From: Candidatus Omnitrophota bacterium | Lineage (GTDB): Bacteria; Omnitrophota; Gorgyraeia; Gygaellales; Profunditerraquicolaceae | NCBI GenBank assembly: GCA_016782485.1 | Contig: JADHYK010000001.1 | Coordinates: forward strand, 30,081-94,080 | Length of the DNA stretch: 64,000 nt | Reading direction: 5' to 3' | The notes under the pieces: generated by a model | What the model was told of the DNA's origin: nothing | The model's database searches: none | The model's input: only the letters and a program-made list of their open reading frames with translations | In this document: positions 1 through 45,690 of the stretch, piece after piece | Layout of the letters: the number at the start of each line of letters is the position of its first letter | Position numbering within the stretch: the stretch's first letter is position 1 | Program-made: the position numbers and the translations under genes

Positions 1-451
1 CCGCCCCCGAAGCCGAAGTGACGATTCCGACGGAAAAAGGCATCAGCGGAAGCTCTCTTTTATGGGCAGGGTCAAATAAGCCTTCTTGGAAAAGTTTTTT
101 CTTCAGCTGTTCAAAGGCCAGTTGCTGGCTGCCTATGCCCTTAGGCTCAATCTTTCCGATATTCAGCTTATATTTTCCATGCGGCGGATAAACATCTATC
201 CTGCCGAAACAGATTGCCTTTAAGCCGTCTTCAATCTTAAACCTGACCTCTTTGTTTGCCTGCCGGAACATCGCCGCGGGCAAAACTGCCCCTTCGTCTT
301 TTAAAGAAAAGTAGAAGTGACCTTTGGCATCAGCTTTAAAATTAGAAACCTCCCCCTCCACCCAGACCTGCTCGAAGGTGTTTTCCAGAATTAATTTTAT
401 ATCCTGGGTGAGTTGGGAGACGGTATAGATATGCCGGGGGTTATCCTTCAT
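1..451 (-). CDS. xseA: Exodeoxyribonuclease VII large subunit, N-terminal part (gene continues beyond window start)
   Basis: Reverse translation from ATG at 451..449 gives MKDNPRHIYTVSQLTQDIKLILENTFEQVWVEGEVSNFKADAKGHFYFSLKDEGAVLPAAMFRQANKEV..., the OB-fold N-terminus of XseA. The ATG overlaps the stop of the upstream gene (ATGA). Confidence 0.8.
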   Translation of the reverse strand, partial: MKDNPRHIYTVSQLTQDIKLILENTFEQVWVEGEVSNFKADAKGHFYFSLKDEGAVLPAAMFRQANKEVRFKIEDGLKAICFGRIDVYPPHGKYKLNIGKIEPKGIGSQQLAFEQLKKKLFQEGLFDPAHKRELPLMPFSVGIVTSASGA

Positions 452-2166
452 AGCTTCTTTTCAAGAATAATCATCTGCACAGAATAGGGAGTTAATTGCA
501 GGGCCTCCTGATAAGATCCGTCTGCATTTATTTCTTTTTCTTCCAGAGGGACGAATTTACAATCCCTGCTGCAGGAAGAATCTACGGCAAACCTCTGGTA
601 CGTATAATCCCCTTTTGTAAGGTTATTGATATTTAAATTTATGCGGCGGGCTGAAAGACTAAGCCTTGCGGCTTTCTCGTATAACTGCTTTGCCCTCTTG
701 AGCAATGCCTTAATCTTTTTGGTTGCGCGCACAGCGGCAATCTCAATCTCGCCGGAGGAAATTTTTTCTATTGTCTCGCGTTTGATAAGGTTGAGCAGGA
801 TTTTTCTTTCTGCCTTTTTTAAAGTGGCGATGTTGCGCGATAAATAGTTATTAACTATCTCCGGGTCGATGTAGTTATAAATAATAACCGCCAATCCCTC
901 TTTTCTCCTGGTGGCGATAACCCCGCAGAAGTCATCTTCGAATTTCGTTAAAAACATATCCGGCCCGAGATTCTCCAGCATCCTGAAGACGTTATAGGTG
1001 GCCTTGGGGCTGCCCCGGTACCCTGAATACTCCGGATCAAAGCTAAATATACCGACGTTACGCACCACGCCCTCTTTGTTATTCTTAAAATCCTCCAGGC
1101 AAAAATAGACCTGATAATCAATACCTGTCTCGTACATATTCTTGATGCGGGCAGGAATATAGCTGGCAGCGATATAAGATTTTTCCTTCCTCTCGGGCAG
1201 GACATTGGCGCTGCGGTCGTAATTCCATTCGTCGACTATTAAAGGTATATTCCTGTCAAATTTAAAATAAGAAAGCCACTCCCGTATCAGTTTGACCGCG
1301 GTCTTTTTATAAGCGGTGTTTTCCTTCTCTACGGCCTGGTCGGTAGAAAATCCGTGCCAGCTGATAAAATCCAGGGGCAGCCGGTAGCGGTAGCAGAATT
1401 TAATCAGTTCGTAGATCAGGCTTTTCTGGGGAGTCACGATAGTATTGCCGTCGAGATTCTGAAACCACCAGCTTACTGCCGGCCCGCCTATCGGGATATG
1501 CATCTTGGTCTCTGCCTTTAGCTCTTTTATGCCCTCTGCGACCGCGCGGTAAAGGTTAAAATACTCCTGTTTTCTGCCTAAAAAGAAATCGTCCAGATCC
1601 GGGGCATTCCATATTTCATACCAGACATTATACTTTTTATCGCAGCTTAACTCCCGGACCGTAGACTTAATTAACTCCTTAAATGCCTTCAGATTCCAGG
1701 GCGGGCTTTTTTTATCCAAGACCTTGCCTAAACCGGCCGGCGTACCAAAGATGTCCAGAATGACTATGCCTCCGGCATCGCTTATGGACTTAATGATGCT
1801 TTCGTAATTGCCAAGAAGCGCTGTCTGCGCCTCTTTATCCTTGGAAAGCTGGTTTATCTCCCAGAGGCTGTATTGCAGCCGATAAACCCCCCTGAAGCCG
1901 ATCTCCTGCCGCCAGATATCCACCGCCTCTTTGGCCGCCATCGCCTGCGGCCAGCCGGGGTCGCGATGAAATCCCCGGCCGCTTAAATCAACGCCGGGCC
2001 TGAATACCTTTGGCAGGGGGACGGTATTAGAGGCAGCATCGAGATTAATTACCAGGCTGTCATCCTGGGCGAATAGTCCACAGCGTCCAGCAGTCCACAG
2101 TCCACAGACAAAGACCATAATAAACAAGAAAAAACATACTAGGGCCTTCTGGCTTAAATTTAACAT
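448..2166 (-). CDS. Exported GH clan A (GH5/GH39-like) TIM-barrel protein with a basic coiled-coil C-terminal tail. The NEP acid/base motif reads NAP
   Basis: N-terminal signal-peptide-like hydrophobic segment ending AFAQ. Motif YEIWNAPD at the clan GH-A (F/Y)E(I/V)WNEP position, and IVDEWN at the nucleophile position. 572 aa. Confidence 0.45.
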   Translation of the reverse strand: MLNLSQKALVCFFLFIMVFVCGLWTAGRCGLFAQDDSLVINLDAASNTVPLPKVFRPGVDLSGRGFHRDPGWPQAMAAKEAVDIWRQEIGFRGVYRLQYSLWEINQLSKDKEAQTALLGNYESIIKSISDAGGIVILDIFGTPAGLGKVLDKKSPPWNLKAFKELIKSTVRELSCDKKYNVWYEIWNAPDLDDFFLGRKQEYFNLYRAVAEGIKELKAETKMHIPIGGPAVSWWFQNLDGNTIVTPQKSLIYELIKFCYRYRLPLDFISWHGFSTDQAVEKENTAYKKTAVKLIREWLSYFKFDRNIPLIVDEWNYDRSANVLPERKEKSYIAASYIPARIKNMYETGIDYQVYFCLEDFKNNKEGVVRNVGIFSFDPEYSGYRGSPKATYNVFRMLENLGPDMFLTKFEDDFCGVIATRRKEGLAVIIYNYIDPEIVNNYLSRNIATLKKAERKILLNLIKRETIEKISSGEIEIAAVRATKKIKALLKRAKQLYEKAARLSLSARRINLNINNLTKGDYTYQRFAVDSSCSRDCKFVPLEEKEINADGSYQEALQLTPYSVQMIILEKKL

Positions 2167-5588: not shown

Positions 5589-6242
5589 TTATTTATTCAT
5601 TACCAGTTTATGCGGCCGGGTCGTCTTCTTAAAATCCTTTGCCGGCTGAATTTCTTTTATTTTCCCGATTTTATTTTTCTTTTCCAATTCTTTGTAAATT
5701 AAAACCCAGGCACAGTCTTTGTCTTTGTCCACTTCGCACTTGCCTTTATCTACGCCGCCGCAAGGCCCGTTTAATAACCCCTTGGAGCAAAGAGTAATCG
5801 GGCAGATCCCGGCGGTAATGCTCAAGACGCACTCGCCGCAGAGAGAGCACTTTTCATAGAAATCGCCCTGCGCATCCATTACTGCCCCGAAGACGGTATT
5901 TAAGGCGGGCAGGACCGTAAGCGATAATCTGTCGTTATCCTTTACCGACTGTACCCCCAGGCCGCAGGCCAAAACCAAGACCGCTTCGCATTCTCTTAAC
6001 GCTTTCATATTCCTGGCTAACTCGGCCTTTAATTTAGCCGCTACGCAGGGGGCCTCCGGCATACACGTACCGGTCACGACTTTGCCCTGCTTTTCTAACT
6101 CTGCCTTCATTGCGGCCAGCTCCGGCTCTCCGCCGGTCTTGGCAGTCGCCGCGCACTCCCCGCAACCCACCAGGAATATTTTTTTATATTCTTTGAGGCT
6201 CTCTAATATCTCCTTAAGCGCCTTCTTTTCGGTAATAATCAT
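5589..6242 (-). CDS. Cys-rich protein with a methylenetetrahydrofolate reductase C-terminal-like domain (MetV-like)
   Basis: GCGECAAT...[32 protein letters not shown] matches the MTHFR_C zinc-ribbon-like domain. Forms an operon with nifU and the 5-FCL gene. Confidence 0.5.
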
Positions 6243-6258
6243 CTTTCGCCCTGGCCGA

Positions 6259-6276
6259 TTATAACTTAAGTTATAA
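6259..6276. promoter_or_regulatory. Perfect 18-bp palindrome TTATAACTTAAGTTATAA overlapping a TATAAT-like -10, 17-34 nt upstream of the MetV-like/nifU/5-FCL operon start. Candidate operator
   Basis: Read directly from the sequence. It lies in the 107-bp gap between the EF-G-like gene stop and the 5589..6242 gene start. Confidence 0.35.
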
Positions 6277-6349
6277 TAATCAGTTAAACGCCTGTTAGAA
6301 AATTATTCTAACACATTTTACCGCCAACCTCAAGCAAAATATGTCGGTC

Positions 6350-9340
6350 TTATTCCTTCTTTTCGCGTTCCTTCTTCTCCGCAACAATCTTTTCGGCGAT
6401 TTCGGCGGGGACTTGCAGGTACTTGGAGAATTCCATGGAGGCGTTAGCACGGCCGCTGCTTAAAGAGCGGATATTGGTGGCGTATCCGAACATCTCCGCT
6501 AAGGGCACCTCTGCGGAGATGATTTTTTGTTTGCCTTTGGTGTCCATGTTCATTACCTTTCCCCGGCGGGAACAGATGTAGCCGACGATACTGTTCACAT
6601 ATTCCTCGGGGGTATTGACCTTAAGGGACATATAGGGCTCAAGGAGTGCCGGCTCGGCTTTCAGAAAGATCTCCTTGAATCCCAATATCGCAGCCATCTT
6701 GAAAGCAAGCTCAGAAGAGTCTACTTCATGATATGAACCGTCAATCAGGCTTACCTTAAGGTCCACTACGGGATAGCCGGCATAAACGCCCTTTTGCATC
6801 GCCTCTATCACGCCCTTTTCCACCGCCGGGATAAATGATTTCGGAATCGCGCCTCCTTTGATCTTATCTATAAATTCAAATCCCTCTCCTGCGCCGCTAG
6901 GGGCAATCTCCATTACCACATGGCCATATTGGCCCCTGCCGCCGGACTGTTTGATATATTTACCCTCTCCGGATGTCTTAGCCTTTATGGTCTCACGGTA
7001 GGCCACCTTCGGCTGGCTTACGTTTGCCTCGACACCGAACTCCTGCTTAAGCCTGTCCACGATAATTTCCAGATGCAGCTCGCCCATGCCGGTAAGCACG
7101 GTTTCCTTTGTCTCCTCATCGGTCTCCACAATAAATGTGGGGTCCTCCTGCGTCAGTTTGGCTAAACCCTTACCGAGCTTATCCTGGTCTGCACGGCTCT
7201 TCGGGCTGATACTAAGCGAAACCACGGGTACCGGAAATTCTATCGCCTCCAGAATAATCGGGTTGTCCATGCTGGAAAGCGTATCGCCGGTTATGGTATC
7301 GGTAAGCCCGATCACCGCCACAATATCTCCGGCGAATGCGCACTCAATATTTTCCTTCTGGTCGGCATGAACCTGCACCAGCCTGCCCACCCTTTCTTTT
7401 TTATCCCTGCTGGCATTAAGCACATAAGAACCGGTATTCAGGAACCCGGAATAAACCCTTACATAAACCAGCTTACCAATATGCTGGTCAGCCTGTAGTT
7501 TAAAAGCAACCCCGGAAAAGGGTTCGTTTATATCGGGCCTGCGTTGTATCTGTTTATCGGGGCTGCCGGGTTCATTGCCGCAAACCGAGGCTAAATCCGA
7601 CGGCGAGGGCAGGTATAAATTTACCGCGTCAAGCAGTTTCTGTATCCCTTTATTTTTAAAGGCCGCCCCGCACAACACAGGGACTGCCCTGTTGGCGATA
7701 GTGCCGCGGCGCAGCGCTTTTATTAACTCCTCCTGTGTAATCGAACCCTGCGACTCCAGGTATTTTTTAGTCAGGGCTTCGTCAAGGACAACAGCCTTTT
7801 CCAGCAGCAGATGCCGGTACTTATCGGCCTGCTCTTTACAATCTGCGGGGATATCTGCGACGCTAAACTCTTTACCCTGAGAGCCCTCGTCGTATATGTA
7901 GGCCTTCATCTCTATGAGGTCAATCACCCCTTTAAAACCGCCTTCTGCACCGATAGGGATCTGGAGCGCTAGTGTGTTGCCGCCGAGCTCCTGCTCAATG
8001 TCCGCTAAAACCGCGAAAAAATCCGCACCCACCCTGTCCATCTTATTGATAAATGCTATTTTGGGCACGTTGTATTTATTTGACTGGTGCCACACGGTTT
8101 CCGACTGCGGCTCCACCCCTCCGACGGCACAGAAGACCACTATTGCTCCGTCGAGAACTCGTAAGGAACGTTCGACCTCGACCGTAAAATCCACATGCCC
8201 CGGCGTATCGATAATGGAAATCCTGTGCTCCTTCCAGAAACAGGTAGTGGCCGCAGCGGTGATGGTAATGCCCCTTTCCTGCTCCTGCTTCATCCAGTCC
8301 ATCTGCGCCTTGCCATCGTGAACCTCCCCTATCTTGTGGGAACGGCCGGTATAAAATAAAATCCGCTCCGTCAGGGTAGTTTTGCCGGCATCGATATGCG
8401 CAATGATACCTATATTTCTGACCTTCTGCATATCAATGGACGGCGGTATCCGGGGTTTTTCCTCCTGCGCCTTCCCTGCTGTTTCCTCAGCTGGCGCCTG
8501 TTTTGGCTGCGGCTCCGGCTGTTTCTGCTCCGGCGGCTTGGCCTCGGGTGGCTGCGGCGGCGGCTCCGGTTGCGGCTTCTCTTCGACGGCCTTTGCCTCA
8601 ACTTCTTCCGCAGGAGGTTGTGCTGGTTTGGGCGGCTCCTTGGCCTTCTTGCTCAGCTGGCTCTTCAATAACACCAGCTCTTCCGCGTAGAGCTCCAGCT
8701 TCTTCTCCCTTTGCTCCAGCTCCTCTTCTAATTCCGTGTACTCCTGGTTTAACTTATTGAATTCTGCCTTTGGAATCCACTCGCTGTTTTCCTCTTTTTT
8801 TTTGAACTCTCTGATCGTCTCCAGGTGCGCCTTTATCTCCTGGGCATATTTTTCCAGCTGGTGCTTCTGGATCTCAACCTGCTCGGCTATGCTCTTTTTC
8901 TCCTGACTATGATCCTGCAACCCCTCTTTTAACTCGTTTATTTCCCGGGTCAGATTTATATTCTTGGTAAACTCCTCCTGCAGCTTTCTTTCCTGCTCGA
9001 GAAATTTATCGCGCAGCTGGGAGTTCTCCGCCCTGACTTTATCCAGCATCTGGTCGGACTTGGCAACCCAATCCTCTCTTCTGGTCAACTCCTCCTTTAG
9101 TTTTGGTTCTTTCACCTTCGCCGCCTCAAATGCTTTATGAATGTTGACGTAATCGCTCTTTACCCGGCTTAGTTCTAATTCTTTAGAGCGGACCTCTGCC
9201 TCCAGCCGCCGGGTCTTCTGCTCCCGGGGGTCAGGGCCGGATTTCCCGGGCTGTGCGCCGCCGCCGGAGAAGATGCCGTACAGGGCATAGGCCACCATAA
9301 ATATGCCCGAAAAAACCAGTATCTGAAAAATTATATTCAT
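6350..9340 (-). CDS. Elongation factor G homolog carried on a 303-aa N-terminal extension: TM helix, long coiled coil, Pro/Glu/Lys-rich linker
   Basis: Residues 304-996 are canonical EF-G ([24 protein letters not shown]...[40 protein letters not shown]...[10 protein letters not shown], domains II-V). Residues 1-303 are [24 protein letters not shown] (TM), then heptad-rich E/K sequence, then [22 protein letters not shown]. There is no in-frame stop between the two parts. An internal Met sits at 8431. Confidence 0.75.
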
Positions 9341-9348
9341 AGCATTAT

Positions 9349-10674
9349 TCAGGCCTGTTTCTTTTTCTGATGAGAATCCCGCAGCTTCTGCATCCTCTCT
9401 TTAATCTTGGCCTCAAAGCCGATCTCCGTAGGCTCGTAATAACGTACCGCCTTCCCGGTGTATTTCTGTTTCACATAATGGCCCGGGTAATCATGGGCAT
9501 ATTTATACCCCTTGCCGTGGCCCAGCTCTTCTGCCCCTTGATAAGAAGCATCCTTAAGATGGTCCGGCACCTCCTGGACCTTTTTTTGCTCTACATCCTG
9601 ATAGGCCTTCTCAATTGCCAGGTAACTTGCGTTTGATTTGGGGGCGCAGGAAACATAAATTACCGCCTGGGCCAGAGGGATCCTTGCCTCCGGCATGCCC
9701 ACAAATTCGCAAATCTGCACCGCCGCATTTGCTAAGACCAGGGCAAGCGGATCGGCATTACCTACGTCCTCCGCGGCCAGAATACAAACCCGGCGGGCGA
9801 TAAAACGCGGGTCCTCTCCTGCATAAAGCATCTTGGCCATCCAGTATAAAGCGCTGTCCGGGTCAGAGCCGCGCATTGATTTTATAAAAGCCGAGGCAGT
9901 ATCATAGTGGCCGTCCTCATCCCGGTCATAAAGAACCGCCTTTTTTTGTATTGACTCCGCTGCAACCGCTAAATCAAAATTAATCACTCCTTCTGCGCCG
10001 GCAGGCGTGGTCAACACCCCTACCTCAAGGGCATTTAAAGCCCGGCGCGCATCGCCTTCGCAGGTCTTGGCCAGGTGTTCCAGCGCCTTTTTGTCAATTT
10101 TGACCCTGAAGTTTCCCAGCCCCCTGTTTTTGTCGGTGAGGGCGCTGTTTAGTATCTTTAAAATATCCGCCGTATCCAAAGTCTTTAATTCGCAGACCAG
10201 CGACCTCGATAAAAGCGGAGAGGCAATAGAAAAATAGGGGTTGTGGACGGTGGCGCCGATTAACACCGGGTTGCCCGCCTCCACATCAGGCAGGAGCACA
10301 TCCTGCTGGGCCTTGTTAAAACGGTGGATTTCGTCGATAAAGAGGATTGTTCTTTTATTATTGCTTGAGCTCTTCACTTTGGCAGTATTGATAATCCGCC
10401 TCAGCTCCTCTACATTCGAGGTAGTGGCATTTATCGGGACGTAATAAGCTTGGCTTACATTGGCAATACACCAGGCCAGGGAGGTCTTGCCTACTCCAGG
10501 CGGGCCGTATAATATCAGTGAACTTATCCGGTCGGCTTCGATGGCGCGACGCAGCAGTTTACCCGGGCCTAAAAGGTGCTTTTGTCCGGCAAATTCAGCC
10601 AGGGTTACCGGCCGCATACGCAAGGCAAGGGGAAGGTCTTTGGAGTCGGAGGGCTTTTCGTTAAATAAATCCAT
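9349..10674 (-). CDS. rarA: Replication-associated recombination protein A (MgsA/RarA AAA+ ATPase)
   Basis: [15 protein letters not shown] Walker [17 protein letters not shown] Walker B/sensor, C-terminal MgsA helical domain. Confidence 0.9.
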
Positions 10675-10680
10675 TGATAT

Positions 10681-10783
10681 GAGATCCTTCGTCCTTCGTT
10701 TCGCTCAGGACTCAGGATTATTTCGCACATTGACTTACGTCGTCCGCCAAAGTTCTGTGGCGGACTCCATAAGTCAAGTGCTC
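10681..10783. repeat. Degenerate, inverted and rearranged copy of the dual-hairpin intergenic repeat (see 16237..16318)
   Basis: Contains GATCCTTCGTCC, CTCAGGAT, TTCGCACATTGACTTAC and the hairpin GTCCGCCAAAGTTCTGTGGCGGAC, matching segments of the other copies. Confidence 0.5.
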
Positions 10784-11047
10784 AATAAAAAATCCCCGCA
10801 GAGTGCCGTCAGAGCGAAAATCTGAACCGATTTGGCTTCAAGTGGGGCCCTCTCCCGGACGCCGAAACGCCAGGGAATTGTGGGCTCCCTTATTATTGGT
10901 GTTGGTTCAATAATTATCGGGCTTCCAACGCGCACCGCAGGGATATCTAAAAGAACCGTAATTTTTGCTACATAAAAAGTATAGCACAGATTATCATTAA
11001 ATTCAATAGCTGCTAAAAACCTGCCTGTACGCGTATGCCCCTGCCCC

Positions 11048-13117
11048 TTAGCGCAACTTGGCGCTAAAAACTTCTTCCAGCAGCCTGCAGATCAGGCTAT
11101 GGACGGGGTTAACCTCTGCGTCGCTGAGTGTGCGTTCGCCGGAACGATAAAAACAGGAGATGGTCAGGCCGATATTGCCGGGAGGGATCTGGCTGCCCCG
11201 GTAATAATCCGCGACCTTCATACTGCAGAGAAGCGGCCGGCCTCTCTCCAGCGCCGCCTCCAACACCTTCTTTATCGGAACCTCCCTGCTCAATACCACG
11301 CTTATATCCCTGGTGATTCCCGGATATTTGGGGGGCGCGACAAAGGTCTTTGCCGGCCTGGCGTGGGCAAGGAGCCTGTCTAAATAAAGTTCGGCGGCAA
11401 CCACTTCTTTATTCTTGATATCCAACCTCTCTAAAAGCTCCTTGCGTAAAATAAAAATTTCGCCTGTTCTCTCCGTGCCGGCATAGATGCCGATCGAAGC
11501 AGCATTTTCTTTGGCATGAAAAGCGCAGCTACCCACTCCCAGCCTCTCGAATAATACCTCAACTATCCCTTTTAAATGCAGAAGCCCGAATCTTTCCTTA
11601 ACCAGGCCCTGGCCCAAAAGATGCGCCTTTGTCCCGCAGAGGGCTATGCCCAACATTAACTCTTCTTTTGGCCCGGAGGCGGAAGAAGAAAATACCTTTG
11701 CCAGCTCAAAAATATTCACGTACTCCTGCTGGTGATTAAGGTTATAGCCAATGCGCGCGGCAATACTCGGTACAAGATGCGGCCTCAAAACCTCCTGTTC
11801 CCTGCTAAGCGGATTCAAGATTCCGATCGGCTCAGGCTCATCCGGCAGCATAAAACCATTCAATAATTCCTTATCAACTAGTCCGTAGGTAATTGCCTCG
11901 CTCAATCCCAGTCCGGCAAGCATGTTCTTTAGCGCAGAGACCAGCTCCCTTTTTCCCGGGCGGAGTGAATGCGGCACTAAAAGCGGCAGGGTGGTAGGGA
12001 TTTTATCAAAGCCGTGTATCCGGGCTGTCTCCTCAACCAGATCTATCTGTGCCTTGATATCCTGCCTGTGCGAAGGAACTCCGGCTATAAAGCTATCCCT
12101 GCCAGTGGCTGCTACTTTAAACCCCAGGCCGATTAAAATCTTCTTTATCCTGGCGGGGGAGATCTTGGTTCCCAAAATCTTATTCGTATCCGCTACGCTC
12201 AGGCGGATGCTCTTTTGCTTCGCCCTGGCCTGGCCCGAACTCTTTGCCAAAATACATTCTCCCTGCGCCAAGGTGCGGATTAATTCTGCCGCGCAAGCGG
12301 AGGCAGGCCCAACCGCCCCCCAATCAATGCCTCGTTCAAACCTGTACGCCGAATCACTCTCTAGCTTTAGCTTTTGCCTTGCCTGACGCACGGTTATGGG
12401 ATTAAATACCGCTGCCTCTAAAAGGATGTTCCTTGTGCCGTCGGATACTTGCGTGTCGTTACCGCCCATGATGCCTGCGATTGCTACCGGCCCTCCTTTA
12501 TCTGCAATAACCAGGATGCCCTTATCCAGCAGCCGCTCCTCTCCGTCGATGGTAACGATCTTTTCCTGCTCTTTTGCCCGGCGTACATATATCTCTGCCG
12601 CCGCGTTTTGAGCTAATCTGTCTAAATCAAAGGCATGTAAAGGCTGGCCCCTCTCAAACAAAAGGTAATTAGTGATATCCACAACGTTGTTTATGCTGCG
12701 GCAACCGACGAGCTCCAGCCTTTCTTTAAGCCAGGCAGGCGAAGGCCCCACTTTTACATCTTTGATTATCTTTGCGGTGTATAAAGGACAGCCTTTTTTG
12801 TCCTCAATATTTATTTTTAATATGTTAGCGTTTAGCGGATAGCGTTTAGCGTATAGGCGACCTTTACTATGCGCTCTACGCTCTACGCTATACGCTCGAA
12901 TTTTCTTATTAGTAATTGCCGCCACTTCTCTTGCGATGCCGATAATGCTTAAACAATCCGGGCGGTTAGAGGTCACCTCTATCTCAAAGACAAAATCTCC
13001 TGCCTGCTTTTGGAGCGCAACCACCTCCAGCCCTGCCATGGTCAGCCTCTCAGCAAGCGCCTCTGCCGCCAGATCGATCCTTACAAACTCCTTCAACCAA
13101 TTATAGGTTACTTTCAT
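11048..13117 (-). CDS. pheT: Phenylalanine--tRNA ligase beta subunit (short form, 689 aa) carrying an in-frame repeat insertion
   Basis: tRNA-binding, B3/4, B5 and FDX-ACB domain patterns. Residues AYSVERRAHSKGRLYAKRYPLNA are encoded by the 70-bp repeat. Confidence 0.9.
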   Translation of the reverse strand: MKVTYNWLKEFVRIDLAAEALAERLTMAGLEVVALQKQAGDFVFEIEVTSNRPDCLSIIGIAREVAAITNKKIRAYSVERRAHSKGRLYAKRYPLNANILKINIEDKKGCPLYTAKIIKDVKVGPSPAWLKERLELVGCRSINNVVDITNYLLFERGQPLHAFDLDRLAQNAAAEIYVRRAKEQEKIVTIDGEERLLDKGILVIADKGGPVAIAGIMGGNDTQVSDGTRNILLEAAVFNPITVRQARQKLKLESDSAYRFERGIDWGAVGPASACAAELIRTLAQGECILAKSSGQARAKQKSIRLSVADTNKILGTKISPARIKKILIGLGFKVAATGRDSFIAGVPSHRQDIKAQIDLVEETARIHGFDKIPTTLPLLVPHSLRPGKRELVSALKNMLAGLGLSEAITYGLVDKELLNGFMLPDEPEPIGILNPLSREQEVLRPHLVPSIAARIGYNLNHQQEYVNIFELAKVFSSSASGPKEELMLGIALCGTKAHLLGQGLVKERFGLLHLKGIVEVLFERLGVGSCAFHAKENAASIGIYAGTERTGEIFILRKELLERLDIKNKEVVAAELYLDRLLAHARPAKTFVAPPKYPGITRDISVVLSREVPIKKVLEAALERGRPLLCSMKVADYYRGSQIPPGNIGLTISCFYRSGERTLSDAEVNPVHSLICRLLEEVFSAKLR
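12827..12896 (-). mobile_element. 70-bp imperfect-palindromic element inserted in frame in pheT. Identical (70/70) to the copy in pyrK
   Basis: On the coding strand AGCGTATAGCGTAGAGCGTAGAGCGCATAGTAAAGGTCGCCTATACGCTAAACGCTATCCGCTAAACGCT. The 5' 30 nt and 3' 30 nt are about 80% reverse-complementary around a TAAAGGTCGCC core. Confidence 0.8.
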
Positions 13118-13119: not shown

Positions 13120-14133
13120 TTAGAACTGCCTCAAAAATCTTAAATCATTCTCAAAAAATAATCTAATATCGTTAATGCCGTATTTGAGCATGGCGATTCT
13201 TTCAATCCCTAAGCCAAAGGCAAAACCCGTATATTTCTTGGGGTCGTAACCGACGTGCTTAAAGACGGCCGGATGTATCATGCCCGCGCCCAATATCTCC
13301 AGCCACCCCTTCCTGCCGCAGACAGAACAGCCTTTGCCGTTGCAGATAATGCAACGGATATCTACTTCTGCCGAGGGCTCGGTAAAAGGAAAGAAATGCG
13401 GCCGGAAACGCATTTTAATCTCCTGCCCAAAAACCGCTTTGGCAAGAATCTCTAAGGCCCCCTTCAAATCGGAAAATTTTATGCTCTTATCCACCATAAA
13501 ACCTTCAATCTGATGGAACATAAAGGAATGACTGGCATCCACGGCATCCGGACGGTATACGCGGCCGGGGACTACTATCGCCAGCGGAGGTTTATGCGCC
13601 TTCATCGCCCTTATCTGCACAGGCGAAGTATGGCTGCGTAGCAATAGCCGATTATTTAAATAAAAGGTATCAAAGGCGTCCCGCGAAGGATGCTCCAGGG
13701 GGATATTTAAAGCGGTAAAGTTGTTATATTCGCTTTCAATCTCCGGCCCTTCCACGACGGAAAAGCCGATCCTCATAAATATGGCGCAAATCTCATCGAT
13801 GACCCTGGTCAAAGGATGCAGATGGCCCAGCTCCTGCGTAATCCCCGGCAGGCCGATATCCGCTGGCCTTGAAACAGCGCCCTCGCCGTTCAAGGAATCG
13901 GCGAACGATTTCTCTTTTTCCTCGATCAGGGAAACTGCCCGCTTCTTTAAGGCGTTGACCGCCTGGCCGAAGGCAGCCCTTTCTTCTTTCTTTAGCCCGG
14001 GGATGGAACCGGTTAATTGCGCAATGATCCCTTTTCTCCCCAGGTATTTCAGCCTGAGCTCCTCCAGGGAAACGGCAGAACCGATATTCTGGAAATCGGA
14101 TTCTATTTGAATTTTAACTGCGCCAATATCCAT
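13120..14133 (-). CDS. pheS: Phenylalanine--tRNA ligase alpha subunit
   Basis: Class II aaRS motifs: FRPHFFPFTEPSAEVD, GAGMIHP, GFAFGLGIERIAM. Confidence 0.9.
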   Translation of the reverse strand: MDIGAVKIQIESDFQNIGSAVSLEELRLKYLGRKGIIAQLTGSIPGLKKEERAAFGQAVNALKKRAVSLIEEKEKSFADSLNGEGAVSRPADIGLPGITQELGHLHPLTRVIDEICAIFMRIGFSVVEGPEIESEYNNFTALNIPLEHPSRDAFDTFYLNNRLLLRSHTSPVQIRAMKAHKPPLAIVVPGRVYRPDAVDASHSFMFHQIEGFMVDKSIKFSDLKGALEILAKAVFGQEIKMRFRPHFFPFTEPSAEVDIRCIICNGKGCSVCGRKGWLEILGAGMIHPAVFKHVGYDPKKYTGFAFGLGIERIAMLKYGINDIRLFFENDLRFLRQF

Positions 14134-14612
14134 ATCAAACCTAGTGCCCCCAATAAAACAACTGCGGCGTTTCTCTTGCCTGTATTAAAACTGGATGCCT
14201 CGGGATTATGCCTGCCCGGGGCTATCTTCTCTATCTCGAAGGCATGTATATCAAGGTCACCGCCGTGTTCGGGGCAGGCACGGTGAAAAACTCCGATAAC
14301 CTCAATCAGATCGCCCGTTGAGCGATAACTGCCCGCCAGCAAATCTGCCTGTTTCAATAAATGCCCCTCCAGCCATACGCCGATTGCCTTTTCGCCGTCG
14401 GTTACATTTATCCAGGCAAAATTGCCGCGCCGCATTATATCACCGATAACTTCGCCGGCATAGGCGATTGTTTTACCGTCGTACGCCTGGGCATTCTCTA
14501 TTAATTCTCGGGCGCTGACCGGCTGGGCAAACGCTGTGTAATGTGTAAAGTGTAATGTGTAAAGCAAAATTACATTAAACATTACACATTTAACATTAAA
14601 CAGGTTTCTCAT
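14103..14612 (-). CDS. Hypothetical exported/membrane-anchored protein. Its signal-peptide-like N-terminus is encoded by a palindromic repeat
   Basis: Start taken as ATG 14612..14610, 1 nt after the trkH stop. The track ORF's extra 9 codons overlap trkH. N-terminus MRNLFNVKCVMFNVILLYTLHFTHYTAFA|QP has an AxA-like cleavage site. C-terminal hydrophobic helix. No recognisable family. Confidence 0.4.
   Translation of the reverse strand: MRNLFNVKCVMFNVILLYTLHFTHYTAFAQPVSARELIENAQAYDGKTIAYAGEVIGDIMRRGNFAWINVTDGEKAIGVWLEGHLLKQADLLAGSYRSTGDLIEVIGVFHRACPEHGGDLDIHAFEIEKIAPGRHNPEASSFNTGKRNAAVVLLGALGLIWILAQLKFK
14536..14601. repeat. Second heptamer-based palindromic element (GTGTAAT/GTGTAAA repeats opposing CATTACAC/CATTAAAC) lying inside a CDS
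   Basis: GTGTAATGTGTAAAGTGTAATGTGTAAAGCAAAATTACATTAAACATTACACATTTAACATTAAAC. Same architecture as the pheT/pyrK element with different sequence. Encodes residues 4-25 of the 14103..14612 product. Confidence 0.6.
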
Positions 14613-16119: not shown

Positions 16120-16232
16120 ATCTTAAGGGTTAAGAGCAGGCAGATTAATAACGCCGCCAGTATAATACAGAGGCCGTATAATACCTCTGTGCCGATGCCG
16201 AAAACTATATTCAAGGGGATTTTAATTTTCAT
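16116..16232 (-). CDS. Unannotated 38-aa hydrophobic small ORF translationally coupled to trkH (ATGA overlap)
   Basis: MKIKIPLNIVFGIGTEVLYGLCIILAALLICLLLTLKI. Its TGA overlaps the trkH ATG. No strong SD. Below the track's 60-aa cutoff. Confidence 0.3.
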   Translation of the reverse strand: MKIKIPLNIVFGIGTEVLYGLCIILAALLICLLLTLKI

Positions 16233-16236
16233 AAAT

Positions 16237-16318
16237 GAGCGCTTAATTTACGCACACGATAGTGTGAGTAAGTTAATGCGCGAATTTATCCTGAGTCCGC
16301 TACAGGCGGACGAAGGAT
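16237..16318. repeat. Dual-hairpin intergenic repeat, copy 1 (about 85% identical to 18058..18141)
   Basis: GAGCGCTTAATTTACGCACACGATAGTGTGAGTAAGTTAATGCGCGAATTTATCCTGAGTCCGCTACAGGCGGACGAAGGATCT. Hairpin 1 is GCGCTTAATTTAC/GTAAGTTAATGCGC with a nested CACAC/GTGTG. Hairpin 2 is GTCCGC-TACAG-GCGGAC. Confidence 0.75.
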
Positions 16319-16981
16319 CTAGAGTTTTCCCGCCAGTATATTCAATAATTCCGGTTCATTCCCGATGACGGTGAGGGCGATAACATCGTCGCCGGGCCTT
16401 AAGACCGTATCGCCCCTGGGGACGATAACCTCCTCGCCTCTTACGATAGAAACCAGCACCGAGTCCGCAGGCAGGTGTATCTGTTTAATCTCTTTGTTGA
16501 TTACGGGTGAGTCCTCGGGCAGGTCCAGGCGCACAATCGCAAGCTTGCCGCGCTGAAAACTCATCAGGTTGACAAAATCTGCGAATGAAACCTCCCCTTC
16601 CACGATTTTGGCGATAATCGTAGTGGAGTTAATGGGCACATCCACCCCCAGCTCGGAAAATGTGTGCTCGTTATCCGGATTATTCACTCTGCCGACGGTA
16701 CGCTGCAGGTTAAATTTCTCTTTGGCCAGCTGGCAGATAATCAGGTTGTCTTCGTCGTCGCCGGTCACCGCAGCCAGAACGTCGGCGCGTTCGATACCGG
16801 CCTCCTCCAGGATGCGCGGCTCGCAGGCATCTCCGTTAATAACCAGTGCCTCCAGCTCCCTGGCCACCTCTTCACAAAGTGCTTTATCCTTGTCTACGAT
16901 GCAAACGGTATGCCCCACATGAGCAAGCCTTTTTGACAGAAAATAACCCACCTTTCCCGCGCCGATTATTATAATATACAT
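16319..16981 (-). CDS. trkA: K+ uptake regulatory subunit (RCK_N + RCK_C)
   Basis: IIGAGKVGYFLSKRL Rossmann motif. TrkA-N then TrkA-C. 220 aa. Confidence 0.85.
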   Translation of the reverse strand: MYIIIIGAGKVGYFLSKRLAHVGHTVCIVDKDKALCEEVARELEALVINGDACEPRILEEAGIERADVLAAVTGDDEDNLIICQLAKEKFNLQRTVGRVNNPDNEHTFSELGVDVPINSTTIIAKIVEGEVSFADFVNLMSFQRGKLAIVRLDLPEDSPVINKEIKQIHLPADSVLVSIVRGEEVIVPRGDTVLRPGDDVIALTVIGNEPELLNILAGKL

Positions 16982-18354: not shown

Positions 18355-18368
18355 CTTGCCCTCGCTGT

Positions 18369-18435
18369 AGATCCTTCGCCTGCCTTCGGCGAGCTCAGGA
18401 TAAGTTCGGTCATAAGTTTATGTTCGCTTCGCTCC
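18369..18435. repeat. Dual-hairpin intergenic repeat, copy 3 (inverted orientation, partly degenerate; between infC and rpmI)
   Basis: AGATCCTTCGCCTGCCTTCGGCGAGCTCAGGATAAGTTCGGTCATAAGTTTATGTTCGC aligns to the reverse complement of copy 1. Confidence 0.6.
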
Positions 18436-18452
18436 ATAAATTTAGACCCCAC

Positions 18453-18968
18453 TTATTTAGGCGCAACCACAAAGGACATAACCCTGCCCTCTAAACGGGG
18501 CTCCTTTTCTATCTGTCCGTCGTTTTGCGTATCGATAATGAATTTATCTAGAATCCTTTTCCCCAGGTCCAAATGCTCCATCTGCCTGCCGCGGAAAAAC
18601 AGGTTGACCTTGACCTTGTCTTTCTTTTTTAAGAAAGTAACCGCCTGCTTTACCTTGGTCTGGAAATCATGTTCGTCAATATTGGGCTTCAGGCGGATCT
18701 CTTTTAACTTGCCCTGCTTCTGGTGTTTCTTGGCTTCGCGCTCCTTTTTTTCCTGGTCATATTTAAATTTGCTGAAATCAATTATCCGGCAGACGGGCGG
18801 GCTGGCAGCGGAAGCCACCTCCACCAGGTCTAAATCATGCTGGCCTGCTAAACGCAGCGCCTCCGGCGTGGGCACAACCCCTAACTGGCCGCCATCCGGG
18901 CCGATCAGCCTTACCTGCGGGACGCGAATCCTTTCGTTAGTGCGGAATAACTTTTTTATAGCAACCAC
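18453..18968 (-). CDS. infC: Translation initiation factor IF-3 (non-ATG start)
   Basis: INERIRVPQVRLIGPDGGQLGV...DLVEV...PPVCRIIDF...LKEIRLKPNIDEHDF. The start codon at 18968..18966 is GTG. Confidence 0.9.
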   Translation of the reverse strand: MVAIKKLFRTNERIRVPQVRLIGPDGGQLGVVPTPEALRLAGQHDLDLVEVASAASPPVCRIIDFSKFKYDQEKKEREAKKHQKQGKLKEIRLKPNIDEHDFQTKVKQAVTFLKKKDKVKVNLFFRGRQMEHLDLGKRILDKFIIDTQNDGQIEKEPRLEGRVMSFVVAPK

Positions 18969-18977: not shown

Positions 18978-20699
18978 CTATATAACCTTTTTTTTAATCT
19001 CCTCTTTAACCATTCTTATAAATTCATCAATCGCCATAGCGCCTAGATCGCCTTTACTTTTTTTACGCACAGAAATATTCCTAGACTCTGCCTCGCGCTC
19101 GCCCACAACTAATACATAAGGTATCTTGTTTAATTCGGCGTTACGGATTCTCTTGTTCAAAGTTTCGCTGCCGCAGTCAATATCAACGCGCATTGAATGC
19201 TCCTGCAGCATTCTTTTTACCTCCTGTGCATAGCCTTCAACAGAATCTTTTACAGGGATAACAACAACCTGCCTCGGCGCCAGCCAGAGAGGCAGCTCTG
19301 CATTATAATGTTCCAGGAGCGCGCCGATAAAACGCTCAAGGCTCCCCAGGATTACCCGGTGCAGCATTATCGGCTGCCTTTGTTTGCCTGCGGAGTCAAT
19401 GTAGGAAAGCTTGAATCTCTTGGGCAGGGCAAAGTCGCACTGGATGGTTGCGCACTGCCAGGGCCTGTTCAGGGCATCCTTTAATTTAATATCTATCTTG
19501 GGGCCGTAGAACGCCCCTTCCCCCTCGTTAATATCGTAAGTCAGTCCTTTTTCCTTTAACGACTCCTCCAGTGCCTGGGTCGCCATCTGCCAGTCCTGGT
19601 CAGAGCCGATATATTTTTCCGGGCGCGTGCTCAATTCGATCTTCAGGTCCTGGAACCCGAATACCTTCATCATGTCAAAGACAAAATCAATGACTGACTT
19701 TATCTCCTGGCGCAGTTGCTGCGGCAGGCAGAAGATGTGCGCATCGTCCTGGGTAAAGCCGCGCACGCGCAGGAGCCCGTGCAGCACGCCCGCCTTTTCC
19801 CGGCGATAGACCGTGCCCAATTCAAAAAAGCGCAGAGGGAGGTCACGATAACTGCGGCTTTTTGATTTATAAATCAGCATATGCCCCGGGCAATTCATCG
19901 GCCTTAAGACAAACTCCTGGTCTTGCGCCTTAAAGGCATACATATTTTCCTTGTAATATTCGTAGTGCCCGGACTGTTTCCAGAGTTCTGCCAGCATAAT
20001 ATGCGGGGTAATCACCAGCTGGTAGCCGCGCCTTAAGTGCTCGGTCTTCTCATAATCCTCAATCAGGTTGCGTAAAAGCGCTCCGTGGGGATGATAAAAT
20101 ACCAGGCCTGCCCCTGCCTCTTCATGATAGATATCGAAAAACCCCAATGTGGTCCCAAGTTTTCTGTGGTCGCGTTTTTTTGCCTCCTCTAGATTTTTTA
20201 GGTACCTTGCCAGCTCCTTTTCCGTTTCAAAACAGGTGCCGTAAATCCTCTGCAGCATGGGGTTAGTTTCCAAGCCGTGCCAATAGGCCCCGGCCAGCGA
20301 CAATAATTTAAATGCCTGGATTTGGCCGGTTGAATTGACGTGGGGGCCGCGGCAGAGGTCGGTAAAACTTTTGCCGGTTCTGTATACGGTTACTGTTTCT
20401 TCGCCAAGACCATCGATCAGTTCGACTTTATAATCCTCTTTTAATTTCTTAAATAATTCCAGCGCCTCTTCTCTGGAAAGCTCCTCTTTTATAAAGGGCA
20501 GGTCACTTTTAATGATCTGACGCATCTTCTTCTCTATTTTTTCCAAATCCTCGTCGGTAAAAGGCTCTTTCTTGTCGAAGTCATAATAAAAACCCTCCTC
20601 TATGGCAGGGCCTATGCCAAGCTTAACGGCGGGCCAGAGCTCCTTTACCGCCGCAGCCATCACATGTGAACAGGAATGTCGTAAAATATTTAAATCCAT
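18978..20699 (-). CDS. thrS: Threonine--tRNA ligase lacking the N-terminal TGS domain
   Basis: Start taken at MDLNIL (ATG 20699..20697). The track's upstream TTG extension overlaps tRNA-Val. HSCSHVMAAAVKELWP (N2 domain), RDHRKLG, class II motifs, C-terminal anticodon-binding domain. Confidence 0.88.
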   Translation of the reverse strand: MDLNILRHSCSHVMAAAVKELWPAVKLGIGPAIEEGFYYDFDKKEPFTDEDLEKIEKKMRQIIKSDLPFIKEELSREEALELFKKLKEDYKVELIDGLGEETVTVYRTGKSFTDLCRGPHVNSTGQIQAFKLLSLAGAYWHGLETNPMLQRIYGTCFETEKELARYLKNLEEAKKRDHRKLGTTLGFFDIYHEEAGAGLVFYHPHGALLRNLIEDYEKTEHLRRGYQLVITPHIMLAELWKQSGHYEYYKENMYAFKAQDQEFVLRPMNCPGHMLIYKSKSRSYRDLPLRFFELGTVYRREKAGVLHGLLRVRGFTQDDAHIFCLPQQLRQEIKSVIDFVFDMMKVFGFQDLKIELSTRPEKYIGSDQDWQMATQALEESLKEKGLTYDINEGEGAFYGPKIDIKLKDALNRPWQCATIQCDFALPKRFKLSYIDSAGKQRQPIMLHRVILGSLERFIGALLEHYNAELPLWLAPRQVVVIPVKDSVEGYAQEVKRMLQEHSMRVDIDCGSETLNKRIRNAELNKIPYVLVVGEREAESRNISVRKKSKGDLGAMAIDEFIRMVKEEIKKKVI

Positions 20700-21055: not shown

Positions 21056-21640
21056 TCAAAGCAGCCTTCTTGCCGCCCTGACTATCTCCTCAACCTCTGC
21101 CAGGCAGCCGATGCCCTTTTTACCGCAGGCAAGCTGCCCCTGCCTGGGGCCGATGAAGCTGTAACCTAAAGACTTTAGCTTTTTGATATTGCCTTGCGTA
21201 ATTTTATTCTTGTACATAGCTTCATTCATCGCCGGAGCAATCAAGACCGGTGCCTGCGTTGCGCAAATTGCGCAGGTCAACAGGTCGTCGCAGATGCCGC
21301 CTGCGATTTTGGCGATAATGTTGGCGGTTGCCGGTGCGACGACCACCAAATCCGCCCTCTCGGCAAGCGAGAGGTGTTCTATTTCCTGGCTTTGCCTATT
21401 GGAAGGCAAACCATTGTTCTCTAACTTACAGGCCCCCGGGTCGGCAAATAATTGCCCGCCGTAAACTTTGTTTCCCGCCAGGCTCTGAAAAACAACCGGC
21501 CGGATAAGCTCCTGGGCCTCCTCTGTCATAACCACGCTAACGCAAACCCCCAGCTCTTTCAGCCTGCGCAGGAGATCGCAGGCCTTATATATCGCAATGC
21601 TGGCTGTCACCCCTAAAATAATCTCTTTGCTTTTGACCAC
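21056..21640 (-). CDS. coaC: Phosphopantothenoylcysteine decarboxylase (CoaC flavoprotein domain only; no fused CoaB)
   Basis: ILGVTASIAIYKACDLLRRL...VVAPATANIIAKIAGGICDDLLT flavoprotein motifs. 194 aa. The gene ends 5 nt before tRNA-Cys. Confidence 0.8.
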   Translation of the reverse strand: MVKSKEIILGVTASIAIYKACDLLRRLKELGVCVSVVMTEEAQELIRPVVFQSLAGNKVYGGQLFADPGACKLENNGLPSNRQSQEIEHLSLAERADLVVVAPATANIIAKIAGGICDDLLTCAICATQAPVLIAPAMNEAMYKNKITQGNIKKLKSLGYSFIGPRQGQLACGKKGIGCLAEVEEIVRAARRLL

Positions 21641-21722
21641 GTAATTAGTCTTTCGGTTTTACTTTTGCGCCACGTAAAATTCGCTTCGCTCATCACGTGG
21701 CAGCCCCGTGGCCCGAAGGGCT

Positions 21723-21917
21723 TTACGGGGCGCAATACACTTTGTTTTCGGCGATCTCGTGCAAGGCAATGGTAGAGGGCTTGGTGGATGAATTCGCATC
21801 TATTAGCTTAGGTTGGCCTTCGGCGATCTCCAAAGCCCTTTTGGACGCCAGAATTACCAGCTTGTAAATAGACCCTTCGCTCTTATCCAGAAGTTTTTCA
21901 ATGGGGACATACGGCAT
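21723..21917 (-). CDS. rpoZ: DNA-directed RNA polymerase subunit omega
   Basis: SIYKLVILASKRALEI. Lies in a yicC-gmk-rpoZ-coaC arrangement. Confidence 0.85.
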   Translation of the reverse strand: MPYVPIEKLLDKSEGSIYKLVILASKRALEIAEGQPKLIDANSSTKPSTIALHEIAENKVYCAP

Positions 21918-36300: not shown

Positions 36301-37128
36301 GCCGAAGTTAAAGAGGAGGATTTTATCGAGCATATTTTTGTCGCCTCCACCAAAGACCACGTTTTAATTTTTAGCGAAAAGGGCCAGGTACACTGGCTGA
36401 AGGTTTACGAGATCCCCCAGGCCAGCCGCATCTCCAAGGGCAAGGCGATAATCAACCTTATAGATATAACCCCGGGCTCCAAGATTAGCTCAACCATCCC
36501 GATCAGGGAGTTTTCCGGAGACAACTATCTGGTGATGTTGACCAAAAAGGGCCAGATTAAAAAGACCAGATTGGATGCCTACAGTAATCCGCGCAAAGGC
36601 GGGATTATCGGAATTACGCTGGAGAAGGACGATGCGCTGATCGCCGTGGAACTTACCGACGGTAAACAGGAGTTGCTGATCGGCACGCGCCAGGGCAAGG
36701 CCCTGAGGTTCCCCGAAAGCAAAGTCAGGGATATGGGCAGGGCGGCGCGGGGGGTGCGCGCGATTTCCCTGGCCAAACAAGACGAGGTCATCGCGATGGT
36801 ATTGGCGCGTAAGGATGCGACCATACTTACGGTTACGGAATTAGGGTATGCCAAACGCACTTCGGCGGATGAATACCGGCTTACCAGCCGCGGAGGTAAG
36901 GGCATTATTAACATAAAGGTTACCGCTAAAAACGGCGAGGCGGTCAGCCTGAAGTCGGTCAGCGACAAGGATGAGTTGATGGTGATTACCCAAAACGGGG
37001 TATTTTTGCGCTGTGCGGTCAAAGACATCCGCTCAAGCGGCAGGTCTTCACAGGGGGTGCGCCTGATTAAGCTGCAGGGCAAGGACCATGTCTCATGCGT
37101 TGCCCGGGTAATTGCCGAAGAAGGATAA
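33376..37128 (+). CDS. gyrA: DNA gyrase subunit A interrupted by a 441-aa intein immediately after the catalytic Tyr
   Basis: Exteins: ...GDAAAAMRY(122) | intein | [13 protein letters not shown]... 809 aa without the intein. C-terminal beta-pinwheel repeats present. Confidence 0.95.
33742..35064 (+). mobile_element. GyrA intein with a LAGLIDADG homing-endonuclease domain
   Basis: Begins Cys ([12 protein letters not shown]), block B GSLNHPIL, two LAGLIDADG motifs ([14 protein letters not shown]; [15 protein letters not shown]), ends ...VSNGFISHN followed by +1 Thr. 1323 nt in frame. Confidence 0.85.
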
Positions 37129-45545: not shown

Positions 45546-45690
45546 TACTGTTAAGACAGAAGCGAACTGAAGGGGGTGTGGGGGAAAATTTCCCCCACGT
45601 CCGGGGGAGAACAGCGATTCCTTAAGTTTTTATTCAGTGAGAGCGTTAAGAGGGGGCTTGCCCCCTCTTAAGGAGCGAACGCAGTGAGCG

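Follow-up and report, generated by a model that had tools for sequence, protein, structure and literature searches.

Heptamer-armed palindromic cassettes lie in frame in housekeeping genes of Omnitrophota

A palindromic element of 70 nt occurs twice, without a single difference, in the 64,000-nt stretch of Omnitrophota DNA analysed here (contig JADHYK010000001.1, positions 30,081 to 94,080; hereafter, the window), once in pheT and once in pyrK, and it is read in frame in both genes. The most fitting description of this element is that it belongs to a new family of palindromic cassettes in Omnitrophota, heptamer-armed and in frame. Among the explanations for its two copies, the leading one, to which we give about an even chance, is that they are a copy-pair of a dispersed, non-autonomous palindromic family of this phylum and arose at permissive hot spots, either through the replacement of cassettes or through ectopic gene conversion. 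The two copies and their host genes are located as follows.

12827-12896, minus strand: AGCG-family heptamer-armed palindromic cassette, pheT copy (left arm 12869-12896, loop 12856-12868, right arm 12827-12855)
52515-52584, plus strand: identical cassette, pyrK copy (left arm 52515-52542, loop 52543-52555, right arm 52556-52584)
11048-13117, minus strand: host gene pheT, phenylalanine-tRNA ligase beta subunit, 689 aa (TIGR00472, 580 bits)
52117-52968, plus strand: host gene pyrK, dihydroorotate dehydrogenase electron-transfer subunit, 283 aa, with three heptamer-derived segments

The identical pair in pheT and pyrK

The 70-mer matches the window at exactly two places, at 12827-12896 on the minus strand and at 52515-52584 on the plus strand, in both cases with 70/70 identity and 0 mismatches, and 100 shuffles yield 0 matches. 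The identity of the two copies ends sharply at the 70-nt boundaries. Both copies stand in codon phase 2 and encode the same peptide, AYSVERRAHSKGRLYAKRYPLNA, which corresponds to residues 75-97 of PheT and 134-156 of PyrK. Five of the six reading frames of the 70-mer contain stop codons; since only one frame is open, the shared frame was forced by survival in essential genes and is no independent coincidence. The element comprises a left arm of 28 nt (AGCGTAT AGCGTAG AGCGTAG AGCGCAT), a loop of 13 nt and a right arm of 29 nt (TATACGCT AAACGCT ATCCGCT AAACGCT), that is, four heptamers per arm, and it folds end to end as an imperfect palindrome. As DNA, the hairpin has a predicted energy of -18.2 kcal/mol on one strand (z -3.1) and of -20.7 kcal/mol on the other (z -4.2). 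The identity, the common frame and peptide and the heptamer-built palindrome had all been proposed in a sequence-only reading of this stretch, and all of them hold.

The same reading took the element for a clean addition of 23 residues to each protein, which the comparison with relatives does not bear out: the net gain is 8 aa relative to a PheT orthologue of 51% identity and about 13 aa relative to a solved PyrK. A length of 70 nt in fact makes a clean in-frame insertion impossible. The expectation that the segment would be non-ancestral and placed in a variable loop is confirmed by orthologue comparison for both proteins. The window PheT is short (689 aa), its main match starting at position 158 of the bacterial pheT model (1-157 unmatched), and the tRNA-binding B2 domain appears from the sequence to be absent, as in Omnitrophota relatives (670-742 aa).

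Contigs identical or nearly identical to the window, as well as its nearest homologues, are labelled Candidatus Omnitrophota or Omnitrophica, and the organism is an Omnitrophota metagenome-assembled genome. The window covers its origin region, with parA, yidC, dnaA, dnaN, gyrB, an intein-bearing gyrA, the pyrimidine operon and V-ATPase genes. Independent assemblies from ENA, NCBI, Logan and JGI contain the 70-mer between the same flanking sequences, and on the strength of this agreement it is not an assembly artefact. One contig (L016) begins inside the 70-mer (position 1) and another (L004) about 10 codons past the pheT hot spot; the cassettes seem to fragment short-read assemblies, as repeats do.

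Spread of the family across Omnitrophota

The survey of the family covers sampled loci and orthologue clusters. L018, L021 and L023 designate Omnitrophota pyrK loci and L045 and L046 Omnitrophota pheT loci; L024 and L026 belong to a sister genome, L047 to the strain of the window and L048 to a strain 99.3% identical to it. P0124, L025 and P0126 are successive PheT outgroups, and P0003, P0004, P0009 and P0017 are PyrK relatives.

The family consensus consists of a left arm (AGCGTAK)x4, a right arm that is its imperfect complement, (WWMCGCT)x4, and a variable loop, with an overall length of 66-79 nt. The arms are conserved as nucleotides and not as peptide: in pairwise comparisons of four pyrK genes, third-codon identity is 88-100% in the arms and 41-61% in the rest of the gene, and the amino-acid identity of the arms (71-94%) is no higher than their nucleotide identity. 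Arm-to-arm folding of AGCG-family copies and of the L025 pair gives z of -4.0 to -4.6, and that of L023 -2.2. Members are hosted in frame by pheT, pyrK and pyrD, with the conserved peptide AYSVER..KRYPLNA, and family peptides are found in 13 of 104 PyrK and 9 of 119 PheT orthologue clusters. At the second of the pyrK sites, nearly the same arms are found at exactly the same junctions in L018, L021 and L023, three species whose PyrK is otherwise 62-69% identical to that of the window; their cassettes have an A-rich loop of 22 nt and measure 79 nt. The pheT linker of L045 and L046, from species of approximately 56-58% identity, likewise holds AGCG-family cassettes, which share with the window the CG-AGCG junction, the AGCGCAT unit, the loop start AGTAAA and an identical right arm. 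The family also extends to other settings: L021 has an intergenic family hairpin and a single-arm array that supplies the stop codon of yjbQ, and the pyrD gene of L023 has a (CTATCCG)x4 array within an AGCG-type insert. The idea of a lineage-private insertion present in two copies is thus not sustained, the same arms being found at the same pyrK and pheT codons in Omnitrophota whose proteins are no more than 56-65% identical. Orthologues with the same peptide, which had been named as evidence that would speak against the proposal, do formally exist; these orthologues carry the same repeat, so that the finding is widened, not refuted.

Further searches give the following picture. A 26-nt core has 0 matches in species-representative genomes, a collection that lacks this species and in which the nearest PheT is 70% identical. 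Against metagenome contigs, a 20-nt core retrieves only the same pyrK locus (L016) and a 22-nt match in L017. The latter, an exact match to the loop region (GCATAGTAAAGGTCGCCTATAC; L017 2729-2750), was treated as chance, as it comes from an unrelated contig without heptamer arms in a large collection. At the protein level, a search with the doubled 23-mer peptide gave 2 candidates and missed known positives, and the 31-aa segment, searched against representative proteins, found one unrelated repetitive protein and also missed the known positives, being underpowered at that database size. In viral contigs the arm pattern matches 18 loci, all of them plain (AGCGTAN)n direct arrays in unrelated genomes, which indicates that the arm motif alone is not diagnostic.

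A smaller palindrome of 20-21 nt, CTGCCTNNCCGGCAGGCAGG / CTGCCT(NN)CCGGCAGGCAGG, is inserted at ATCC^GCT of the CGCTATC heptamer in pyrK site 1 of L021 and in the pheT right arm of L046, and peptides matching it (CLAGRQA, LPVRQAG) occur in several further orthologues; it is not present in the window. The right arm of L046 in which it is nested is part of a composite pheT cassette (6240-6400) whose left arm is tandem-duplicated, with two sets of four AGCG units separated by AGTCAAAAGAT. This composite cassette indicates that additive events occur besides replacements.

Hot spots and cassette turnover

Comparison with other species, including the sister, shows the occupied positions to be permissive loops that hold unrelated heptamer cassettes there. 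The pheT site is the linker after AREVAA, where the orthologue of 51% identity has 17 unrelated residues, the sister (CATGGGY)4 + (AAGACYC)4 and L025 (AGTCCAY)5 + (CTGTCGA)4. On the solved PyrK 5ksw_B, site 2 of pyrK falls between the helix that follows the GGxG motif and the strand after it. A poor AlphaFold2 model of PyrK, whose mean predicted local distance difference test score is 61, has its lowest internal confidence at sites 1 and 2, which lends weak support. The cassettes also differ between species at pyrK sites 1 and 3, in pyrD and at the 14534 locus described below.

Turnover at these loops is rapid. Between the window and the sister, pheT identity is 92-97% as far as about six codons from the cassette on either side, whereas the cassettes themselves are unrelated. 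Over approximately 37 kb, the alignment of the window with the sister (93% identity) contains 23 divergent blocks; five loci are heptamer cassettes and most others are small palindromes. Within the population, the pheT and pyrK cassettes are stable, being unchanged in seven assemblies of 99.3-100% identity, although L048, at 99.3% identity, is distinct at the pyrD hot spot and in a cluster of intergenic hairpins. Its differences from the window in pyrD are dense over about 150 nt around the hot spot (53634-53790), which suggests that a short tract was recombined or replaced within the population.

Linker lengths at pyrK site 2 step by 7 aa (8, 15, 22, 29 and 36), and 56 of 84 fit this series against 12 expected, with a p-value that is overstated, as the orthologues share ancestry. 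The minimal 8-aa linker is found in 20 of 104 PyrK orthologues. No 7-aa quantisation is seen in the pheT linker lengths.

Other small palindromes also differ between these genomes. A 42-nt double hairpin of a different family (CCGCCAC-AAAA-CGTGGCGG followed by TCCGCCA..TGGCGGA) stands in frame in the pheS and thrS genes of the sister, at places of L024 orthologous to window 13420-13443 (pheS) and 19908-19933 (thrS). The sister PheS has 351 aa, compared with 337 in the window, and the same double-hairpin family fills pyrK site 2 of the sister (L026); the window has one perfect CCGCCA..TGGCGG hairpin, at 10744-10763. Several intergenic stretches of the window are absent from, or different in, the sister or the 99.3% strain (10665-10792, 10998-11052, 16224-16328, 18355-18463, 21377-21440, 21662-21743 and 45546-45688), and most of them hold hairpins rich in GC, together with motifs like GAGCGAAGCGAA; this points to additional small insertion-element families.

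Period-7 arrays as a habit of the phylum

The 70-mer exemplifies a heptamer-array habit that is general in the phylum. In the window, long tandem runs occur at no period between 4 and 12 other than 7. Eleven Omnitrophota loci, which total 189 kb, contain 27 arrays of period 7 and one of period 8, with none at periods 5, 6 or 9, compared with a mean of 0.05 arrays in block shuffles of the same set; 77 kb of PheT loci from other phyla contain no arrays of any period. At a looser threshold the count rises to 29 period-7 arrays, 24 of them inside open reading frames (ORFs) of at least 100 aa. A heptamer array gives the same 7-residue periodic peptide in any frame, so the habit can be tested on proteins alone: 7-residue periodicity is found in 43 of 120 PyrK and 19 of 120 PheT orthologue clusters, and other offsets from 3 to 12 in 0-5 each.

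Origin of the two copies

For the pheT copy, the direction of change can be read from the relatives. With the linker masked, PheT identity to the window is 92.7% for the sister, 89-91% for P0124, approximately 75% for L025 and 64% for P0126, and the last three share an HSPQS/AGTCCAC-type cassette at the pheT site. The phylogeny accordingly indicates that the AGCG cassette of the window is a derived and recent replacement, as three successive outgroups have a different one. The recency that had been proposed is thereby upheld for this copy; insertion into a naive site is not, and the events look like the replacement of a cassette already resident at a hot spot. The pyrK copy of the window is 82-86% identical to pheT-type copies and 68-78% identical to pyrK-type copies. 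It shares AGCGCAT, the loop start AGTAAA and TATACGCT with the former and keeps the TT junction of the latter, from which we infer copying from pheT to pyrK within the genome. The cassettes measure 70, 79 and 67 nt, and since each of these lengths equals 1 modulo 3, exchanging one cassette for another keeps the frame.

The following sequence of events would account for these observations. An older AGTCCAC-type cassette in pheT would have been replaced recently in the lineage of the window, and the pyrK copy would then have been made from the pheT-type copy within the genome. The likeliest route would be ectopic gene conversion or cassette replacement, in which homology is provided by the outer arm units (21-24 nt), nearly identical to those of a family member already resident; with the conversion tract confined to the centre of the resident cassette, junctions and frame would be kept automatically. 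The heptamer arms probably grow and are homogenised by replication slippage together with hairpin-templated correction, and the peptide would be a tolerated passenger, not the reason for the existence of the element.

Several observations weigh against this account. Gene conversion needs a resident family member in pyrK, and of the nearest PyrK relatives P0003 has a different cassette and P0004 none. Short-loop peptides are present at pyrK in P0009 and P0017 (as peptides only), and short-loop and long-loop copies may be mobile subfamilies, not site lineages. The codons flanking the cassette hold no long foreign tract; the few abutting codons that resemble distant species fit retained ancestry equally well. 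Seven assemblies of 99.3-100% identity show no empty-versus-filled polymorphism or length change at pheT or pyrK, and no transposase, RAYT (REP-associated tyrosine transposase, REP standing for repetitive extragenic palindromic element) or other mobilising enzyme appears in the Pfam lists of the window or of approximately 190 kb of related loci. All copies of the AGCG family have identical stem mismatches, which are uncompensated, and this means that the sequence is conserved and not just the pairing. Finally, the family counts are from sampled loci only, and the searches for further copies are uninformative.

Enzyme-mediated insertion with a preference for hot spots is a serious rival. [quoted passage not shown] The candidates would be single-strand transposases of the IS200/IS605 or RAYT type, and the same loops would be hit if existing cassettes or hairpins were preferred as targets. 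Two identical copies 40 kb apart, a family dispersed over coding and intergenic sites of several species, contigs that break at the element and a sister genome with many gains and losses of other small palindromes would all follow from it. The 20-21-nt palindrome at the exact ATCC^GCT position in two species shows that precise insertion of small elements into arrays occurs, and the missing target duplication is compatible with peel-and-paste transposases. AGCGTAG also contains GTAG, the tetranucleotide that RAYTs cleave in REPs (PMC3733652), although this is a lead only. However, the sampled loci have no transposase or RAYT gene in their Pfam lists, a 70-nt insert would shift the frame, the lack of any remnant of the previous pheT cassette speaks for replacement and not addition, and the junctions are identical to those of distant species.

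Less probable still are two further explanations. The first is that the cassettes are ancient, vertically inherited and kept for a function at the nucleic-acid level, such as an mRNA or DNA hairpin or a heptamer binding-site array affecting translation pausing, mRNA stability or replication, while relatives lost or remodelled them and the 70/70 identity reflects a one-off gene conversion. This is unlikely, although it has several points in its favour. The architecture (two arrays of about four heptamers and a loop, approximately 70 nt in all) is kept at the same positions despite different heptamers, and the pyrK-site copies of three species share homologous, diverged loops, as descent predicts. 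The third-codon conservation of the arms and the hairpin z values of about -4 also agree with it. On the other side, the pheT array pair of the sister does not fold arm to arm and a second pair in the sister folds weakly, conserved mismatches in the stem are uncompensated, many orthologues have no cassette (the 20 of 104 PyrK with a minimal linker; pyrD of L018 and L021), the phylogeny at pheT indicates replacement and not retention, and the intergenic and gene-end copies have no common context.

The second, also improbable in our judgement, is a dedicated enzyme-driven system that would write or exchange cassettes of approximately 70 nt at nucleotide-precise positions in surface loops of essential genes. 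It would jointly explain the architecture that stays constant over unrelated heptamers, the identical junctions in distant species and the full replacement within genes of 92-97% identity. The cassettes would then be no passive parasites: an undescribed system for site-directed DNA rewriting would act on them or leave them as its footprint, and they might have a function at the nucleic-acid level.

Selection of the peptide as a functional protein module, at the level of its amino acids, is disfavoured and very improbable. Near-identical peptides do occur at the same loop in many orthologues, but third-position identity of the arms exceeds their amino-acid identity, and among the arm differences the non-synonymous ones, counted by eye, outnumber the synonymous ones. 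An array composed purely of AGCGTAT units meets a stop in whichever frame it is read; the coding copies contain AGCGTAG units, which turn the in-frame TAG into GAG, and the intergenic copy, made of the same DNA, is closed by stops in the coding frame. The family peptide has no Pfam match, and the same loop holds unrelated cassettes or none. The third-codon conservation, the closed intergenic copy and the missing Pfam match together argue against a module at the protein level.

Independent production in place of heptanucleotide repeats by slippage, without copying between loci, is refuted for the 70-mer pair and most improbable as an explanation. In its favour, long simple-sequence repeats are known to include abundant heptanucleotide repeats, for which slippage has been proposed (PMC4679880), pyrK site 3 shows concerted evolution in place and the linkers of pyrK site 2 step by 7 aa, or 21 nt. 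Slippage cannot, however, account for two genes that have a non-repetitive loop of 13 nt and the order of their variant units in common, nor for arms shared between different genes and species, and no copy-number variation exists among the strains (seven assemblies, 99.3-100% identical). Slippage is likely to contribute to arm growth.

Relation to known repeats and significance

From the perspective of known systems, the RPE-like behaviour that had been suggested is borne out, in that a palindromic hairpin stands in frame in unrelated genes with a conserved peptide. The proposed novelty of the family stands in part: neither Rfam, whose scan of the window returns tRNAs only, nor the literature searches yield a described family that matches, and RPEs were compared by description only. 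RPEs are about 100-150 bp long and form ten families, many of them in frame, and the peptide insert is tolerated (PMC10969869; PMC3733652). They resemble the present family as palindromic repeats in frame in unrelated housekeeping genes with a conserved peptide per family. They differ in being longer (about 100-150 bp compared with 66-79 nt), in belonging to an alphaproteobacterial intracellular parasite and in not being described as heptamer-built, whereas the cassettes of this other phylum have heptamer arms, recurrent hot spots and family turnover.

REPs and REPINs are tagged by GTAG or CGTC and are thought to be mobilised in trans by RAYT transposases (PMC3733652; PMC3116915). Intragenic REP dimers encode 20-30 aa, and different REPs occupy approximately the same recB site in two Xanthomonas species (PMC3733652). 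The likeness lies in short palindromes, often inverted doublets that form a larger hairpin, which in some species are intragenic. REPs are, however, GC-rich stems of 20-40 bp, mostly extragenic and without heptamer periodicity; the Omnitrophota element has GTAG inside AGCGTAG and inverted arms, but it is a heptamer array, and 24 of 29 period-7 arrays are inside ORFs. Each arm, like the single-arm arrays, also resembles heptanucleotide simple-sequence repeats in consisting of head-to-tail 7-nt units.

Cyanobacterial heptamer tandem repeats (STRR), reportedly described by Elhai et al. in 2008, are said to lie mainly between genes and to contain nested small dispersed repeats (SDR) that form hairpins of about 21-27 nt. 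By that definition, the 20-21-nt palindrome nested in the heptamer arrays of L021 and L046 is similar; the difference is that the Omnitrophota arrays are mostly genic and in frame, paired and inverted, and include one complex cassette copied between genes. Heptanucleotide long simple-sequence repeats and the TAACTGA repeats of Beggiatoaceae are direct, of patchy phylogenetic distribution and mostly intergenic upstream of starts, and they close reading frames (PMC4679880). They share with the present case the genome-wide preference for period 7 and the patchy distribution, and differ from the Omnitrophota arrays, which are mostly inside ORFs, often in inverted pairs and at orthologous hot spots.

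MITEs are similar in being small, non-coding in themselves, dispersed, with inverted-repeat ends and capable of in-frame fusions. In the cassettes, by contrast, imperfect inverted arms of 28-29 nt and a loop make up the whole element, at or below the lower size limit of MITEs, and there is neither a target-site duplication nor a related insertion sequence. No direct repeat was found in the flanks of seven copies. The MITE class named in the sequence-only reading is not established, for want of a target-site duplication and of a transposase in the window or in the related loci. Assignment to the RPEs or the REPINs is not established either, as the sizes differ and the loci covered show no mobilising enzyme.

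Literature searches on such repeats in Omnitrophota found no description, and neither an Omnitrophota survey of 2023 nor a complete-genome preprint of 2026 (bioRxiv 10.64898/2026.06.07.730766) mentions them. In-frame palindromic repeats of housekeeping genes, reported largely from Rickettsia and a few REP-rich bacteria, are now found in a large uncultured phylum that is free-living or epibiotic. The loops of pheT, pyrK and pyrD, re-occupied by different cassettes even between sister genomes, represent a natural experiment: the rates of cassette gain, loss and replacement, the tolerance of enzymes to inserts of 10-30 residues and the link between slippage and mobile hairpins can be measured from metagenomes. 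In practical terms, assemblies from short reads seem to break at the cassettes, proteins look more divergent because of them, and alignments of Omnitrophota orthologues can be led astray. If a mobilising enzyme were found, it would be a new DNA enzyme that recognises hairpins or heptamers.

Other heptamer loci and features of the window

Beyond the identical pair, the window contains the following heptamer loci.

52425-52457, plus strand: single-arm array (CGCTATC)x4.7, with the heptamer of the cassette right arm, at pyrK hot spot 1; encodes YPLSAIRYPLS
52725-52758, plus strand: array (CGACTAT)x4.9 of a different heptamer family, at pyrK hot spot 3; encodes LSTIDHRLST
53720-53747, plus strand: pyrD hot spot past the NLSCPN motif, with two AGTCCAC units (remnant cassette)
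14534-14603: second 70-nt hairpin, of unrelated heptamers, (TGTGTAA)x4 - loop - (TTACAYW)x4 (z -3.7 and -3.9)
2075-2107: AGTCCAC-type heptamer array near the N-terminus of a GH39-like ORF (448-2166, minus strand)
59071-59100, plus strand: array (AGTAGWT)x4.3 that extends over the V-ATPase B gene's 3' end and the spacer; supplies TAG stop codons

The (CGCTATC)n array is also present at pyrK site 1 of L021 and L023 and absent from the sister genome, and site 3 is filled in orthologues by GAACTAC, NAACTAT, GCCATTA or a period-8 unit. The pyrD hot spot holds an AGCG-family cassette in L023, an AAAGTCC/ACAGTCG array in the sister, another sequence in L048 and nothing in L018 and L021. The hairpin at 14534-14603 sits in the N-terminal region or 5' leader of the ORF at 14103-14612, and the orthologous place of the sister has (TATCAAA)x4 and (TTTGCAT)x3.6. 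The annotated N-terminus of this ORF, which carries the TGTGTAA hairpin, reads like a signal peptide ending in AFA.

The ORFs at 14103-14612 (minus strand, 169 aa) and 37235-38719 (plus strand, 494 aa) are conserved and have no Pfam or NCBIfam match. gyrA (33376-37128, plus strand) encodes 1250 aa and contains an intein with LAGLIDADG_3 at residues 359-434, the Intein_splicing match being below threshold. A free-standing ORF with a weak LAGLIDADG_3 match, at approximately 62148-63070 (plus strand; 306 aa in L047), adjoins a tRNA (62003-62076) and may be a homing endonuclease detached from an intein or intron. Its counterpart in the sister (L024 1218-1877, 219 aa) is also located beside tRNA genes.

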